Assembly (NCBI RefSeq): GCF_044324875.1
Contig: NZ_CP172185.1
DNA from: Escherichia coli
GTDB lineage: Bacteria; Pseudomonadota; Gammaproteobacteria; Enterobacterales; Enterobacteriaceae
Length of the DNA stretch: 64,000 nucleotides
Reading direction: 5' to 3' (one strand)
Part shown: positions 1,962 through 13,738 of the stretch, in pieces
Position numbering within the stretch: position 1 is the first letter of the stretch
Layout: each line of letters opens with the position of its first letter
Translations under genes and position numbers: made by a program
Notes under the pieces: model-generated
The model's database searches: none
The model's input: only the letters and a program-made list of their open reading frames with translations
Told to the model about the DNA's origin: nothing

Positions 1962-3286
<1,325 letters not shown>

Positions 3287-3315
3287 ATGACAACCGCCCT
3301 GACGGGCGGTTGAGT

Positions 3316-4092
3316 TTATTCTTTAGTTTTTTCGCTTTCTGCTTCAGCGTCGTTTTCTTCTTCCCGGTTTCGGCCCTTACCAACGTAAAAGCGTGAGAAG
3401 AAGACACCGATTTCAAACAGACAGTACATCGGGATCGCCAACAGCGTTTGCGAGAAGACATCCGGCGGCGTCAGCAGCATCCCGACAACAAATGCGCCAA
3501 CCAGCACATACGGACGTTTTTTGCGTAAGTCTTCTGGCGAGGTAATTCCCATCCAGCACAGCAGCACAATTGCCACCGGCACTTCAAAGGAGACACCAAA
3601 CGCCATAAACAGCGCCATAACGAAGCTTAAATAGCTGGCGATGTCGGTGGATACCTGTACCCCTTCCGGCGCGGTATTGGCAAGGAAGCCAAATGCCAGC
3701 GGAAAGACCACAAAGTAGGCGAACGCCATGCCGATATAAAACAACAGAGAGCTGGAAACCAGCAGCGGCACCACCAGGCGACGTTCATGCTTATACAGCG
3801 CTGGGGCGATAAACGCCCACACCTGATAGAGAATCACCGGCGCTGACAGAATCAGCGACACCATAAAGGTCAGCTTGATCGGCGTAAAGAACGGCGAGGC
3901 CACGTCGGTGGCGATCATCGTTGAACCTTGCGGCAACTGCTTGATCAATGGAGCGGATACCAGGTGATAGATGTCATTGGCGAAATAGACCAGACACAGG
4001 AATATCACGATCACCGCGATAATGCAGTTCAGCAGACGCTTACGCAGCTCAATCAGATGCGTGATAAGCGGTTGAGTATCTTCTACAGACAT
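3316..4092 (-). CDS. tatC: Twin-arginine translocase subunit TatC
   Basis: 258-aa polytopic membrane ORF; matches TatC in length and sequence. Confidence 0.9.
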
Positions 4093-4094
4093 GT

Positions 4095-4610
4095 TTACGG
4101 TTTATCACTCGACGAAGGGGAAGGTGCAGCGGTTTTCGGTTCAGCGTCCGCAGCAGGTTTTACCACCGGCTCTGGCGTGGTTTCTGGCTTCTGTTCCGGC
4201 GAACTGGCCTGCGTTTGTGCAGCAGCAGGCGTTACGCCTTCATGCGCAGCTTCATTGTCTTTCACCACCGGGTTGTGGATGGTGTGCGCTTCATCACTCG
4301 CCTTTTCAGGATCGTTTGCAACGTAGGAACGCTTCATCGACTCCGCGGCCTGGCGTAGTTCATCCATCGACGCTTTCAGTTCGGGCGTCAGGTTAGTGAG
4401 GCTCGCCTTTTCAACCTTTTTCAGACTGTCCTGAAACTCCTGGAGTTTTAACTCCTGGGTCAGTTCGTTCTGCACCGTTGTCGCCAGTGAACGCAACGCG
4501 CGAATCCAGCCCGCGACCGTTTTTACCGCCACAGGCAGTCGTTGCGGCCCCAGAACGACGAGGCCGATGATGAATACCAATAGCAGTTCGCTAAAACCGA
4601 TATCAAACAC
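4095..4610 (-). CDS. tatB: Twin-arginine translocase subunit TatB
   Basis: 171-aa [29 protein letters not shown]...; TatA/B family N-terminal helix with a long acidic/Pro-rich tail. Confidence 0.9.
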
Positions 4611-7973: not shown

Positions 7974-8067
7974 CTCAATGCCTGCTCATCAAAAAATTGT
8001 TCCAGAAGTGTAACAGATTGGGCGTCGATGCCCTAGATTTCTACCCGGCTTAACTACCCCCAATGGG

Positions 8068-9495
8068 CTAGCGCGACTGCTGATTATATTCATCATCGCG
8101 TTGATAAGCTTCATCATTCGGCTGCCCAGGAACCGACCGAAGTCGATACTCTTCATCCTGGCTCACCGCCTGTTCAGCCAAATCCGGGTTAATCTCGCGT
8201 TTAATTTCTACCCCTAAACCGCGAAACGCTTCTGCCTGCGCCAGCACATTTCCGCGACCTGAAGAGAGTTTTTTCATCGCCTGGCGATAGTTATCCTGCG
8301 CTTTGTCCAGACTTTGACCAATCGCGGACATATCATCAATAAACAGACGCATCTTGTCGTACAGCTTGCTGGCGCGATCGGCGATTTGCTGGGCGTTACG
8401 GCTTTGATGCTCATAACGCCAAAGGTTGGCGATAGTACGCAACGCCACCAGCAGCGTGGTGGGGCTAACCAGCATTATGTTGTTCTTTAATGCTTCGGTG
8501 ATCAGCTCCGGCTGGCGATCAAGCGCCAGTAAAAAAGCGGGTTCCACAGGGATAAACATCAGCACGTAATCCAGCGTTCGTAGCCCCGGCAGCTGTTGAT
8601 AGTCTTTGCGCCCAAGCAAGCGGATGTGATTACGTACCGAAGCAATATGCTCCTGCAATGCGCTTTCGCGTGTGTAGTCGTCTTCCGCGTTGAAGTAGCG
8701 TTCATAGGCGACCAGCGTCATTTTGGCATCGATCACCACATCTTTCCCCTGCGGTAGCCGCACGATGACATCCGGCTGCATCCGCGAGCGAGCGTCATTT
8801 TCGATGCTGACCTGGGTTTCGTATTCATACCCTTCACGCAGTCCGGAAGCCTCCAGCACCCGCGTCAGTACCACTTCGCCCCAGTTCCCCTGGGTTTTGT
8901 TATCGCCTTTCAGCGCGCGGGTCAGGTTGATCGCTTCCTGGGCCATTTGCGCGTTGAGCTGCTGGAGATTGCGAATTTCGTGGGTCAGGGTATGGCGTTC
9001 TTGTGCTTCTTTACCAAAGCTGTCCTGAACCTGACGGCGGAAACCGTCCAGTTGTTCACGTAGCGGCGACAACAGGCTGTTCAGACTCTGACGGTTTTGC
9101 TCATCAACCCGGCGATTGCTGTGCTCAAAAATACGGTTGGCGAGGTTTTCAAACTGCTCACTGAGGCGCTGCTCGCTGTTAATCATCTGGCGAATTTTAT
9201 CGTCAGCATGTTGCTGTGCGGCTTCCATCCGCGTGGTTACTTCACGCAGATCGGCCTCCAGAGAGGTGTTAATACTTTGCAGGCTGCGCACTTCGTTATT
9301 GAGTAACTCGCACTCAGCGCGCCAGTGCTCGCTTTGGGTAATTTGTTGTTTTGCCGCGCTTAACTCCGCGACCATCTCTTCACGTTCAGCTAATTGCTCG
9401 GCTTTTTGCTGCGCATGTTGATAACTGGCAAACAGCCAGCCAATTGCCACACCCACCAACGCAATAACTGCGTAAACCATGATTGAGAAATCCAC
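8068..9495 (-). CDS. rmuC: DNA recombination protein RmuC
   Basis: 475-aa ORF with N-terminal TM segment and long coiled-coil region; matches RmuC (YigN) position and length. Confidence 0.85.
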   Translation of the reverse strand: MDFSIMVYAVIALVGVAIGWLFASYQHAQQKAEQLAEREEMVAELSAAKQQITQSEHWRAECELLNNEVRSLQSINTSLEADLREVTTRMEAAQQHADDKIRQMINSEQRLSEQFENLANRIFEHSNRRVDEQNRQSLNSLLSPLREQLDGFRRQVQDSFGKEAQERHTLTHEIRNLQQLNAQMAQEAINLTRALKGDNKTQGNWGEVVLTRVLEASGLREGYEYETQVSIENDARSRMQPDVIVRLPQGKDVVIDAKMTLVAYERYFNAEDDYTRESALQEHIASVRNHIRLLGRKDYQQLPGLRTLDYVLMFIPVEPAFLLALDRQPELITEALKNNIMLVSPTTLLVALRTIANLWRYEHQSRNAQQIADRASKLYDKMRLFIDDMSAIGQSLDKAQDNYRQAMKKLSSGRGNVLAQAEAFRGLGVEIKREINPDLAEQAVSQDEEYRLRSVPGQPNDEAYQRDDEYNQQSR

Positions 9496-9599
9496 AACGC
9501 CTCCTGACGCAACAACTTACCCGCACAAAATAGAATTGTGCTGTACAAACGTCCAGTTGGAAAGGCATTTCCTGCGAGGCGCTACGCAAAAATACAAAA

Positions 9600-9616
9600 G
9601 GCCGAACGCGTCGGCC
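9600..9616 (-). terminator. Rho-independent terminator downstream of udp
   Basis: Perfect inverted repeat ggccga-acgcg-tcggcc; on the minus-strand transcript it is followed by a U-rich tract (cuuuuguauuuuug). Lies just 3' of the udp stop. Confidence 0.6.
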
Positions 9617-9635
9617 TTCAGACAGGAGAAGAGGA

Positions 9636-10397
9636 TTACAGCAGACGACGCGCCGCTTCCACCACGATTTTCACCGCTTGGCTTTCAGTTTGTTTCATCG
9701 TCTCAGCATTCGGGATCTCTTGCTGGGTGCGGTTAACGATAACGCCCGCCACCATACCCGCACGCAGGCCCTGACTTGCACACATGGTCAGCAGGGTTGC
9801 AGATTCCATTTCATAGTTCATTACGCCCATCGCCTGCCACTCTTCCATAGAACCTTTAAAGTGACGAACTACGCGACCAGAGTAAGTATCGTAACGTTCC
9901 TGGCCTGGGTAGAAGGTATCAGAAGAAGCCGTCACGCCAACGTGAGTCGTCGCGCCAATGGATTTCGCCGCTTCAACCAGCGCAGTCGTACATTCGAAAT
10001 CAGCGACAGCCGGGAATTCCAGCGGTGCGAAGTGCAAGCTCGCGCCATCCAGACGAACAGACGCCGTGGTAACCAGAACATCGCCAACATTAATATGCGG
10101 CTGAATAGCGCCCGTTGTACCGATACGCAGGAAGGTGCGAATGCCCAGCTGTGCCAGCTCTTCAACAGCAATAGAGGTAGACGGGCCGCCGATACCGGTA
10201 GAGCAGACGATAACAGGTTTACCATCCAGCTCTGCACGCCAGGTGGCGAATTCGCGGTGAGATGCCAGCTTAACCGGCTTATCCATCAGCGCGGCGATCT
10301 TTTCCACACGATCCGGGTCGCCAGGGACGATGGCAAGCGTAGCCCCTTGTAAATCGTTTTTAGTGAGGCCGAGATGAAAAACATCAGACTTGGACAT
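9636..10397 (-). CDS. udp: Uridine phosphorylase
   Basis: ORF track gives 255 aa; known Udp starts [19 protein letters not shown] (253 aa); PNP/UDP phosphorylase family. Confidence 0.9.
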
Positions 10398-11471: not shown

Positions 11472-11862
11472 TTTCCTCTTAGTCTATATTTGAGATGGTG
11501 AGTGAACGAGTGCGTTTTGCTGCCATCTCTGTCCCCCAAAAAATAATCAGTATGAATTGATTGGAGAGCACGACTCCGCTATTTGACCTTAAGAAAGTCG
11601 GCAAGTAATAGTCATAAGTGAGTCTCTTCACTGGCAGACACCTTAGAGATTTACCATCAACTCCCATTCTCAAACAAACATTAATTATTATCAACACATT
11701 CACATTAATTATAAATTATCTCAGACCTTCCTGATAAAAAGATATTAAAGTGAAACATTTTGTTTTTCACATTTTAGTTCATCCCTTTTAGGCGTAAATA
11801 AAGGTAAAAAATAACAATACTATTTTTCTTTCACAAAAGAATTAACAAAAGGTTTTTCAAGG

Positions 11863-12996
11863 ATGAGTGATATTATTTACCTGAACATAACCGGAGAACA
11901 ACAAGGATGTATTTCCTCTCGTTGTGGAACGAGCGCATCAATAGGTAATCGCTGGCAGATTGGCCATGAAGATGAAATCTTCGCGTTCTCGCTCTCTAAT
12001 AGTATTACGAATACAGGCAAAGGGTCACAATTGCATGGCCTTAGTTTCTGTAAATTGATTGACAAAAGCTCCCCGTTACTTATTAACGCTATTAACAATA
12101 ACGAGCAGTTGTTCATGGAGTTTGACTTCTATCGGATCAATAGATTTGGTCGATGGGAGAAATATTACAACATTCAACTTCGCGGCGCGCTCTTATCAGC
12201 AATCAATCACCTGTTTACTGAGAACAATCTGGATACAGAAACCATCACTGTCAGTTATGAATATATACTCTCCAGGCATCTGATTGCTAATACTGAATTT
12301 AGTTATTTGGCATTTCCCGATAACTACAACCGTCTGTTTATACCACGGCCAAAAACTAAAGATGATAATGGCCTCAAAACACTCAATAGTAAAGCGGTTG
12401 GCAGACTGCTTGCTGCTGGCGGCATATACAATGGGAATATCGAAGGATTCAGGGAAACAGCAAACAAGTTGGGAGGAGATGCACCTGCTGGTTACGATCA
12501 AGTTATGGATAACAAAGGGTTACTCATCGCTGGTGCTTCAATAGTTGCTGGAGTTGTTCTGGGAAGAATGAGATTCCCTGATTTGGAATCACTTGAGCAT
12601 TTCGGAGCCAGAGGAGCAGTATCAGGAAGACCATTTAATCCCGACCTTGCCGGTGGTCCAATTGAAAACCTGACGATAGATGGCGTAACAATCAACAGGG
12701 AAGGTATCGCTATTGTTGAAAAGCATATCTCCAGATTTGATCATGATCCAGCTAATGATGTAATGATTTCAAGGCTAAAGAAAATAGCAAATAAAGAATT
12801 GCTTCCTGAAAAATACGATCTGAACTACTATACTCATGAATGTCGCGAGTATCAGCGTTATTGTAATTTAGGATGGGAAACAGGTGAACCGAAAGGTTTA
12901 GATGGATATGAATTATGGAATAATGTACATACTGCAACTCTAGAAGACTTTAAAATTAAAGATACTGACTTATTTCATCCGGATGCAAAAAAATGA
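11863..12996 (+). CDS. Hcp (T6SS tube protein) fused to a C-terminal extension of unknown function; candidate Hcp-ET type VI effector
   Basis: Residues ~1-160 (MSDIIYLNITGEQQGCISSRCGTSASIGNRWQIGHEDEIFAFSL...LHGLSFCKLIDKSSPLLINAINNNEQLFMEFDFYRIN...EKYYNIQLRGALLSAI) align by eye with enterobacterial Hcp (Y-I-x-I-x-G-x-Q-G, S-I-G-N-x-x-Q-x-GHEDEI, DKSSPLL, FxFYR...E-Y-Y). Residues ~165-377 form an extra domain containing a hydrophobic stretch (LLIAGASIVAGVVLG). Visibly AT-rich; absent from the K-12 ysgA-metE interval as I recall it. Confidence 0.7.
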   Translation: MSDIIYLNITGEQQGCISSRCGTSASIGNRWQIGHEDEIFAFSLSNSITNTGKGSQLHGLSFCKLIDKSSPLLINAINNNEQLFMEFDFYRINRFGRWEKYYNIQLRGALLSAINHLFTENNLDTETITVSYEYILSRHLIANTEFSYLAFPDNYNRLFIPRPKTKDDNGLKTLNSKAVGRLLAAGGIYNGNIEGFRETANKLGGDAPAGYDQVMDNKGLLIAGASIVAGVVLGRMRFPDLESLEHFGARGAVSGRPFNPDLAGGPIENLTIDGVTINREGIAIVEKHISRFDHDPANDVMISRLKKIANKELLPEKYDLNYYTHECREYQRYCNLGWETGEPKGLDGYELWNNVHTATLEDFKIKDTDLFHPDAKK

Positions 12997-13250
12997 CGAT
13001 TACGATAGTTGAATTTAACGTGCTGAAAGTTATGGCTGAGAAAGATATTGACTGGAGCTGGATGGTGCTGGATCGTACTTTAGCTATACGAAATATTCCA
13101 GGATTTGGCAACGTAGCGAATATCGTAACAAAGCTGGTTAATCATGGGTTGGTTGATATCGTAAATGGTGAGGGCAACTCTAGACCACGCTACAGAGTTT
13201 CTCAATATGGATTGAATCTTATCAAAGAACAACAAGACAACCTCTTCTGA
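12993..13250 (+). CDS. Small protein (85 aa), candidate cognate immunity protein or small winged-helix-like protein
   Basis: ATG overlaps the TGA stop of the Hcp fusion (ATGA), implying translational coupling. No signal peptide. Paralogous to the next ORF. Confidence 0.5.
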   Translation: MTITIVEFNVLKVMAEKDIDWSWMVLDRTLAIRNIPGFGNVANIVTKLVNHGLVDIVNGEGNSRPRYRVSQYGLNLIKEQQDNLF

Positions 13251-13309
13251 TCCAGCCATTACAGGAGCATGATTTACATTGTGATCTTTCAATAAGATAC
13301 TCATCAATT

Positions 13310-13570
13310 TTGGTACAGAATATCGTGATCACTAAAAATGAACTTAACGTGCTGAACGTTATGACTGAGAAAGATATAAACTGGAACTGGATGAATCTCG
13401 ATCGCACACTATCCATAAGGCAAATTCCAGGATTCGGGAATGTTGTTAACATTGTTAACAAATTAGCTAACGAAGGTTTGGTTATTATTGAGGATAGCGG
13501 GAATAAGTCTATGCCTCACTACCACGTTAGTGAAAAGGGATACAATCTCGTGCAACGTGAGAATAAATAA
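13310..13570 (+). CDS. Small protein (86 aa), tandem paralog of the preceding ORF (second immunity candidate)
   Basis: Roughly half the residues match the upstream 85-aa ORF (NVLKVM-EKDI-W-WM-LDRTL-IR-IPGFGNV-NIV-KL-N-GLV). Start codon uncertain: the track start appears to be non-ATG. Confidence 0.45.
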   Translation: MVQNIVITKNELNVLNVMTEKDINWNWMNLDRTLSIRQIPGFGNVVNIVNKLANEGLVIIEDSGNKSMPHYHVSEKGYNLVQRENK

Positions 13571-13678
13571 CGTAGCGTTGATTACTGAACGGAATCACTC
13601 AAAACTGTGTTTTGCGAAAAAAACGATTCGGTTATTTCTGCTCCTGAAGATCAGCTTCAATCTGGCACTCATGCAAAA

Positions 13679-13698
13679 TGGCTTCCAGTGCTGGAAGC
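13679..13698 (-). terminator. Hairpin downstream of metE (putative terminator)
   Basis: Perfect 9-bp inverted repeat ggcttccag-tg-ctggaagcc immediately 3' of the metE stop; the flanking U-tract on the minus transcript is only moderate. Confidence 0.4.
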
Positions 13699-13738
13699 CA
13701 TTATCGTACTGCAATTTACAGTGACTCGTTAATATTCG

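Follow-up and report, generated by a model that had tools for sequence, protein, structure and literature searches.

A specialised Hcp protein of Escherichia coli with a putative polymorphic toxin domain and two candidate immunity genes

An Hcp fusion with a C-terminal extension

Investigation of a 64-kb window of the Escherichia coli chromosome (contig NZ_CP172185.1; the window is the whole stretch of DNA analysed) revealed a 2.2-kb island holding three genes on the + strand, the first of which encodes a protein of 377 amino acids (aa), in which an intact Hcp (TssD) tube-protein domain of a type VI secretion system (T6SS) is fused to a C-terminal extension of 212 aa, while the other two encode small proteins of 85 and 86 aa. 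An Hcp fusion with a tail outside the usual toxin classes is confirmed. The extension consists of two modules, a linker and then a domain which, judged from its database relatives, is a member of a large, uncharacterised polymorphic toxin family. The best explanation of the whole, considered fairly probable, is a specialised Hcp effector that acts in the cytoplasm, probably as a nuclease, and is encoded together with a cognate and an orphan immunity; on the best reading it represents a sixth class of Hcp-fused T6SS effector. The features of the island are as follows.

11480..13735, no strand: low-GC (guanine plus cytosine) island with three genes, between ysgA and metE (GC dip, core-gene flanks, patchy presence)
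11863..12996, + strand: whole gene, fusion of Hcp (TssD), linker and putative toxin domain, 377 aa, WP_001521777.1 (list of open reading frames, ORFs; RefSeq annotation of the identical locus)
11863..12312, + strand: Hcp/TssD tube-protein domain, residues 1 to ~150 (TIGR03344 and Pfam T6SS_HCP matches)
12376..12573, + strand: conserved linker ahead of the putative toxin domain, residues 172-237, KTLNSKAVGRLLAAGGIYNGNIEGF..GGDAPAGYDQVMDNKGLLIAGASIVAGVVLGRM (recurs in proteins with unrelated N- and C-termini)
12517..12567, + strand: Gly/Ala-rich hydrophobic segment, residues 219-235, GLLIAGASIVAGVVLGR, with GxxxG (hydropathy, predicted helix)
12595..12993, + strand: putative C-terminal toxin domain, residues ~245-377, of an unnamed family
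12724..12933, + strand: stretch with invariant polar residues, presumed active site (invariance in alignment)
12993..13250, + strand: predicted cognate immunity gene, 85 aa, its start overlapping the toxin stop by 4 bases (ATGA) (synteny, co-variation)
13310..13570, + strand: predicted second, orphan immunity gene, 86 aa as ORF; RefSeq start 13325, 81 aa (similarity to the immunity of the other allele)

Regarding the tube-protein part, residues 1-147 match TIGR03344 (TssD) with 124.9 bits against a cut-off of 58.9 (expect value, E, 2.8e-36), and residues 6-135 match Pfam T6SS_HCP (PF05638). A first-pass annotation of this DNA had described an Hcp fusion whose extension begins at position 12358, which is codon 166, the first residue past the Hcp fold; both peptide strings that it quoted are present in the ORF. 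Its view that the extension lies outside the recognised toxin classes stands, with no HNH, colicin deoxyribonuclease (DNase), pyocin, lipase or peptidase match found by profile or fold search. The sensitive profile and structure searches of the extension that it had suggested gave no match to any known domain: nothing was retrieved from Pfam (E<=10), NCBIfam (E<=1) or PADLOC, and the best matches among PDB sequences, with the single sequence and with profiles, are at chance level (E about 1). RefSeq names the fusion 'type VI secretion system tube protein TssD' and both small genes 'hypothetical protein'; with the fusion annotated merely as a tube protein, a probable weapon and its two presumed antidotes are invisible in current annotation.

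A widespread family of C-terminal domains

A profile built from eleven diverse copies of the C-terminal domain was searched against 1.84 billion representative proteins, clustered at 50% identity, and matched 792 clusters at E<=0.001, of which 252 reach E<=1e-30. Its usual place is the very C-terminus, and the proteins that carry it have up to 5214 residues. Among 66 longer members, the carriers include Pyocin_S (5), PAAR (3), WXG100 (2-3), RHS (2-3), LysM (2), Cloacin (1) and Hcp (1), and DUF8093 proteins are also among the carriers of the domain; in the Rhs carriers it follows the Rhs-associated core, one of them having an SpvB-like N-terminus. Named matches belong to the Proteobacteria, Cyanobacteria, Planctomycetes, Acidobacteria and Chloroflexi, while the matches in the AlphaFold database are mostly 'S-type pyocin' or 'Pyosin/cloacin translocation domain' proteins of Pseudomonas, Serratia, Salmonella and others. 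The same C-terminal domain thus occurs on differing trafficking domains, as is typical of polymorphic toxins.

The earlier proposal of a possibly new or divergent effector domain is borne out in that the domain is C-terminal in Rhs, PAAR, WXG100 and bacteriocin proteins and has a small co-varying gene downstream; effector-like as it is, it is not peculiar to this protein, being a member of a large family. Two details of that proposal have to be corrected. The domain had been taken to start at HISRF (residue 288), whereas the conserved region begins near residue 245-250 (HFGARG...), and its conserved residues had been taken to include Cys, whereas C327, the one Cys in the quoted motif 'THECREY', varies in the family and the consensus at that position is Leu. 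None of 11 family members has a Pfam match at E<=10. NCBI has tagged some fragments 'colicin' or 'HNH endonuclease', and no NCBIfam model behind these tags could be reproduced.

The family is spread over many phyla and at least four delivery routes, namely Hcp, PAAR and Rhs proteins of the T6SS, WXG100-type proteins (type VII secretion system), colicin-like bacteriocins and LysM proteins. Once worked out, the chemistry of the domain would provide an annotation for hundreds of toxin families together, and a new enzyme mechanism could come to light. In some family members (six listed) the domain is not terminal and is followed by 200-500 further residues that have no NCBIfam match, which could be tandem toxin domains, fused immunities or gene-calling run-ons.

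Predicted cognate and orphan immunity genes

Regarding the small genes downstream of the fusion, the two ORFs are paralogues with 59% identity. In Pantoea (62% identity) and Cronobacter (39%, E 1e-19), a homologue of the first comes directly behind this toxin domain, in toxins whose N-termini are not Hcp; the small gene therefore appears to track the C-terminal domain. Every immunity seen next to the domain has 81-90 aa.

A second E. coli allele of the fusion, of 382 aa, is followed by a single downstream gene. Between the two alleles the Hcp domain is 99.4% identical and the linker 98.7%, the C-terminal domain only 73.9%, and the immunity of the second allele is 85% identical to the second ORF of the window and 60% to the first. 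Because of this 85% identity, the second ORF is regarded as an orphan immunity directed against the other allele. By sequence comparison, then, the window would carry the cognate immunity followed by an orphan immunity against a rival allele, as typically results when cassettes are displaced in polymorphic toxin loci; a remnant of the other allele's toxin was looked for between the two immunity genes and not found. A constant N-terminal part, a tip and an immunity that have diverged between strains, and an orphan immunity are all present, as in other polymorphic toxins. The pairing of each predicted immunity with its toxin is shown by synteny and co-variation, and the toxin-immunity reading is regarded as very likely.

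Both immunities lack a basic N-terminus, a signal peptide and a hydrophobic segment, their maximum hydropathy in a 19-residue Kyte-Doolittle window (KD19) being 0.88 and 1.07, and they are predicted to be cytoplasmic. The small proteins have a weak resemblance to the recognition helix and wing of MarR/PadR proteins (E 0.009-1 for MarR entries of the PDB; E>0.01 in Pfam), which accounts for the label 'MarR family' on some of their NCBI records. A winged-helix fold of the immunities is plausible from these matches; the role of a regulator is unsupported, since proteins of 81-90 aa are too short for a MarR regulator and the dimerisation helices are missing.

Bacteriocin chimeras and the probable site of action

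Searches of plasmids with tblastn revealed bacteriocin genes that end in the domain (45-48% identity); they lie on small ColRNAI plasmids from Klebsiella (5783 bp) and from E. coli (about 7 kb), and each is followed by a gene of 87-90 aa and a lysis gene. The bacteriocin of the Klebsiella plasmid has 780 aa, with a Pyocin_S domain at residues 494-631, and matches klebicin B with 96% identity as far as residue ~632, the end of Pyocin_S, after which it continues with this domain whereas klebicin B has an HNH DNase. Similarly, a 711-aa protein encoded next to toxA in Pseudomonas aeruginosa shares 95% identity with pyocin S2 as far as residue ~555, continues with this domain and is followed by the gene of an 85-aa 'immunity protein'. 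The domain thus appears to be used repeatedly as a drop-in replacement for the DNase directly behind Pyocin_S. The immunities beside the bacteriocin versions have no sequence similarity to those of the window. It is relatives at 45-48% identity, on the Col-type plasmids of Klebsiella and E. coli and in P. aeruginosa, that occupy the position of a bacteriocin nuclease, the window protein itself having no Pyocin_S.

The Pyocin_S domain is reported to be necessary for the inner-membrane import of nuclease bacteriocins (PMC9040868; PMC5536347), and the cargo reported for it so far consists of nucleases, apart from colicin-B-like pore formers (PMC9040868). That the domain takes the position of the HNH DNase behind Pyocin_S is the main reason why a cytoplasmic target and a nuclease are favoured here. 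The first-pass annotation had favoured a cytoplasmic target on the grounds that the downstream partners lack signal peptides; the immunities indeed have no export signal, and the position directly after Pyocin_S in bacteriocins points the same way. An enzyme toxin acting in the cytoplasm is considered likely. The klebicin-B and pyocin-S2 chimeras are ready-made diffusible proteins for tests of activity and import.

Three further observations concern these bacteriocin loci. On the Klebsiella plasmid pKSB1_9A_5, a klebicin-B-type 'bacteriocin immunity protein' gene (2670-2927) is kept between the new 87-aa gene and the lysis gene; it looks like a leftover of the displaced DNase module, and the plasmid may protect against both toxins. 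The P. aeruginosa sequence NZ_CP131792.1, an 846-kb 'plasmid', carries toxA, the pyocin S1/S2 locus and orphan immunity genes of colicin-D type and S6 type, a context which is chromosomal in PAO1; it could be part of a chromosome that has been wrongly assigned, or else an integrative element of very large size. The chimera of pyocin S2 and the new domain has no correspondence with the named pyocins of the cited papers.

Conserved residues and predicted fold

Across 72 aligned copies, no two of which reach 62% identity, residues H288, R304, D319, H325, E329 and H356 are invariant, and the same six are invariant in 66 full-length members; E326, R291, R328, R332, Y323, Y333, W352 and L360 are near-invariant. 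The AlphaFold2 model of the domain made from the 72-copy alignment has a predicted local distance difference test score (pLDDT) of 92.1 and a predicted template modelling score (pTM) of 0.85, and comprises an extended N-terminal segment followed by four helices (domain residues 44-54, 61-74, 82-100 and 111-128). An independent full-length AlphaFold run gave a value above 93 for the toxin region, residues ~250-377 being confident. Each of the four predicted helices bears at least one invariant polar residue, with D319, H325, E326, R328, E329 and R332 located on the third, and in this model the invariant His, Asp, Glu and Arg residues are the presumed active site. Fold searches of the model retrieved no solved relative.

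An HNH or His-Me finger nuclease was rejected, there being no match to HNH, Colicin-DNase, AHH, GH-E or similar profiles and no fold match, and the model being all-helical with no hairpin before the His-bearing helix. The HEPN (Rx4-6H) and 2H (HxT/S) motifs, compared by eye, do not fit the invariant columns.

Proposed mechanism and competing explanations

In the proposed mechanism, a single polymorphic toxin-immunity cassette, lodged between ysgA and metE, would encode the fusion as a specialised ("evolved") Hcp effector. Through its Hcp domain the protein would become part of the secreted tube of a T6SS encoded elsewhere in the genome, and the C-terminal 212 residues would be fired into a neighbouring bacterium, where the Gly/Ala-rich helix of the linker that would tether the toxin may help it to cross the inner membrane of the prey. 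Residues ~245-377 would constitute a four-helix enzyme with the invariant His/Asp/Glu/Arg residues as its active site, acting in the prey cytoplasm, most likely as a metal-dependent phosphodiesterase (nuclease) on DNA or RNA. In the producer, the 85-aa protein would bind and block the toxin, and the product of the second small gene would protect against the other E. coli allele.

Several points weigh against this mechanism. There is no T6SS cluster within the window, so that delivery would rest on loci elsewhere, and the hydrophobic segment of the linker amounts to a single marginal hydropathy window and a model of low confidence. Searches retrieved no homologue whose activity has been measured, nor any paper that names the accession, DUF8093 or the conserved motifs of the family. 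The all-helical model contains neither a beta-beta-alpha-metal core nor any other known nuclease core. The family is acidic, with a median isoelectric point (pI) of 5.8, 68% of members below 6.5 and this copy at 5.3, while the nuclease domains of bacteriocins are usually strongly basic; the first immunity is near neutral (pI 6.5) and not an acidic mimic of nucleic acid. The nuclease step, which is argued by analogy with the bacteriocins, is an even call, and an enzyme that hydrolyses a phosphorylated small molecule, or one that modifies proteins, agrees with the set of residues about as well as a nuclease.

Placed first among the alternatives, and possible though on balance doubtful, is a cytoplasmic enzyme other than a nuclease, acting on a phosphorylated metabolite (NAD(P)+, nucleotides, alarmone) or on an essential protein, in which His/Glu/Asp would form a metal site and a cluster of Arg would bind phosphate. 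H288, H325, E329, H356 and D319 together with R291, R304, R328 and R332 would suit such a metal site and phosphate-binding site, an acidic family is unusual for non-specific binders of nucleic acid, and the lack of a fold match to known nucleases and the non-acidic immunity agree with it; against this, the domain stands in for the HNH DNase behind Pyocin_S, whose reported cargo is nucleases bar the colicin-B-like pore formers (PMC9040868), and it has no fold or profile link to NADases, ADP-ribosyltransferases, HD enzymes or Fic enzymes.

A bolder version is unlikely, in which the domain would be a new enzyme fold with an activity unseen in interbacterial toxins (e.g. a metal-dependent nucleotide or cofactor hydrolase, or a modifier of an essential protein), not a classical nuclease, and the linker a self-contained inner-membrane translocation (IMT) module, the helical counterpart of the Pyocin_S IMT, common to Hcp fusions and DUF8093 toxins. 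If it were true, the DUF8093 proteins would be a new class of T6SS cargo.

Of the known families, only one could coincide with that of the domain, the 'non-HNH DNase' killing domain of pyocin S3 (and pyocin Sn); the activity would in that case be known already, and just the Hcp fusion would be new. For the DNase domain of pyocin S3 there is neither a Pfam model nor an assigned fold (S1 Table of PMC5536347; PMC9990079), so that the searches used would have missed it. Members of the family are common as the last domain of S-type pyocin-like proteins in Pseudomonas, and the NCBI labels 'colicin' and 'HNH endonuclease' on some fragments might be read in the same sense, although they have no reproducible NCBIfam model behind them. 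The pyocin S3 immunity protein has about 150 aa, compared with the 81-90 aa of the immunities beside the domain, and this identity is regarded as quite improbable.

The linker ahead of the toxin domain

Regarding the first module of the extension, pairwise BLAST comparisons showed similarity confined to residues 172-~240, and the linker is 67-85% identical in enterobacterial proteins that have no Hcp. The N-termini of these proteins are DUF8093 (PF26362) or an unannotated region of ~140 residues, and the C-termini of linker proteins include Colicin_D, DUF6883 and at least two others. Because the similarity ends at ~240 and the flanking domains are unrelated, residues 172-237 are interpreted as a shared pre-toxin linker, separate from the toxin domain. 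A database search with the linker alone retrieved short fragments only and added nothing. In the AlphaFold model the linker has four short helices of low to moderate confidence, the helix at residues 222-232 having a pLDDT <50.

The hydropathy maximum of the whole protein (KD19 1.69) is centred on residue 229, and the pattern of small residues in the hydrophobic segment is kept in all linker-bearing homologues. The Gly-rich hydrophobic segment pointed out by the first-pass annotation is therefore real; it is marginal as a membrane span and lies in the separate linker rather than in the toxin domain, and the membrane insertion that had been suggested is merely possible. The linker may simply tether the toxin inside the lumen of the tube; by analogy, with no homology behind it, its Gly-zipper helix may aid passage through the inner membrane. 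Being shared among toxins, the linker offers a handle on the question of how those of the T6SS get through that membrane.

It is highly improbable that the hydrophobic linker is itself the toxic element, dissipating the inner membrane of the prey, with the C-terminal domain as an accessory. With its GxxxG motif, the segment GLLIAGASIVAGVVLG is the hydropathy peak of the protein and is strongly conserved, but it amounts to one marginal hydrophobic window only; the linker precedes at least four unrelated C-terminal domains, which have their own downstream gene where checked (Colicin_D; DUF6883, followed by a DUF4926 protein), and the toxin domain occurs with no linker in Rhs, PAAR and bacteriocin proteins. 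Furthermore, the two E. coli alleles have a near-identical linker but differing immunities, which indicates that immunity tracks the C-terminal domain, and the immunities have no membrane segment, unlike those of pore formers. A pore-forming or depolarising toxin in general was rejected, as there is neither a membrane-spanning hydrophobic hairpin (one window, KD 1.69) nor an integral-membrane immunity.

The toxins with DUF8093 or the linker in Pantoea, Enterobacter and Cronobacter are stand-alone toxin-immunity pairs that do not adjoin T6SS genes (extracted loci 8001-9316, 8001-9810 and 8001-9292, respectively), and the Pantoea pair is part of an integrase/defence island that also holds a type I restriction system and a pair of reverse transcriptase and OLD-family genes. 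An 87-aa fragment of the linker, deposited as 'hypothetical protein, partial [Mycobacterium tuberculosis]' from a 262-bp contig, is most likely assembly contamination.

Comparison with known toxin systems

The Hcp-ET effectors of Enterobacteriaceae (Hcp-ET1 to -5; Ma et al. 2017) are summarised in PMC6730261 and PMC6099711. The window protein shares with them the N-terminal Hcp, a C-terminal toxin extension that is long enough for a domain (>60-120 aa), an orphan location away from the T6SS cluster and an immunity gene immediately downstream, of which there are sometimes several copies. It differs in that its extension matches none of the Hcp-ET tails and that a different linker takes the place of Pyocin_S. 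It is thus a new class of Hcp-fused effector, as far as sequence can tell, but the same kind of system as those known.

With klebicin B and pyocin S2 the likeness lies in the natural chimeras, which carry this toxin family in the position of the HNH DNase, followed by a small immunity gene (and, on the plasmids, a lysis gene). The difference is that the window protein would be delivered by Hcp, whereas the bacteriocins enter by receptor and Ton/Tol import; in addition, the toxin domain of the chimeras is 45-48% identical to that of the window, and their immunities have no similarity. The Pyocin_S IMT domain (PF06958; PMC9040868) occupies the same place as the linker, between a delivery module and a toxin acting in the cytoplasm, in both T6SS effectors and bacteriocins. 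It is a ~15-kDa beta domain of two sheets, in contrast to a linker of ~65 residues, predicted to be helical and partly hydrophobic, and it has no Pfam match in the window protein. Rhs, PAAR and WXG100-LXG polymorphic toxins bear the same family as their C-terminal tip and likewise have a constant trafficking part, a variable tip, and adjacent and orphan immunities, whereas the carrier in the window is a tube protein in a minimal three-gene cassette.

PT1 and PT7 (bioRxiv 10.1101/2021.10.19.465003) resemble the domain in being short C-terminal domains of novel fold on PAAR or LXG; they are His-dependent DNases whose small immunities cover the active site. Both are nevertheless different families. 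PT1 (Nachmias et al.), which likewise occurs in Cronobacter and on PAAR proteins, was rejected as an identity for the domain, because its H44/H48 pair (i, i+4) fits no conserved pair of His, the family having H325/E329 there, and no PDB match was found; the crystal structures of PT1 and PT7, if released, gave no sequence or fold match. T6EC4, an Hcp-fused toxin of Citrobacter (Geller et al.), is Tox-REase-5-like, with a differing fold, and was likewise set aside.

Occurrence and genomic context in E. coli

The gene order around the island is rmuC, udp, ysgA, island, metE, metR. Its GC content is 36-44% against 51-57% in the flanks, and this low GC supports a foreign origin. While the flanks are present in 5409 of 5426 complete E. 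coli genomes, the island was found in 841 of the 5426 and the fusion gene in 846, in every case on the chromosome. Carriers thus make up about 1 in 6 complete E. coli genomes and include LF82 as well as strains from human urine and poultry. A scan of the island for promoters and terminators gave consensus-level matches only.

The fusion ORF is intact in 818 of the 846 carriers, which argues against decay, and the tail family occurs almost only at the C-terminus of known toxin-delivery proteins, while a constant N-terminus, a diverged C-terminus and a matched small gene are the signature of toxin-immunity pairs, so that a decaying Hcp paralogue with a structural tail and two MarR-type regulators, and no weapon, is extremely improbable, even though T6SS genes are absent nearby, pseudogenised copies exist (O121:H19, UTI89) and some records carry the NCBI label 'MarR family transcriptional regulator' with a weak MarR/PadR winged-helix likeness, as all those matches are below significance and proteins of 81-90 residues have no dimerisation helices.

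Several variants of the locus were observed. In E. coli O121:H19 FWSEC0006 (extracted locus 2501-3649) an internal stop breaks the fusion gene, whose 3' part has an annotation of its own, 'colicin', the immunity gene still being annotated as an intact coding sequence (CDS) despite the broken toxin gene. The UTI89 protein Q1R4A0 has 229 aa and lacks most of Hcp, and in Shigella sonnei the toxin domain is fused to an 'IS1 orfB' protein. In many otherwise identical E. coli genomes an insertion sequence (IS) element of the IS1 or IS3 family lies just upstream of the fusion gene, between it and ysgA (window 11472-11862; extracted locus 3445-4142), and could alter its expression. In strains with the second allele (extracted locus 3925-4047), the RefSeq annotation has a 40-aa 'hypothetical protein', WP_001230617.1, in the stretch from the last immunity gene to metE (window equivalent 13571-13738).

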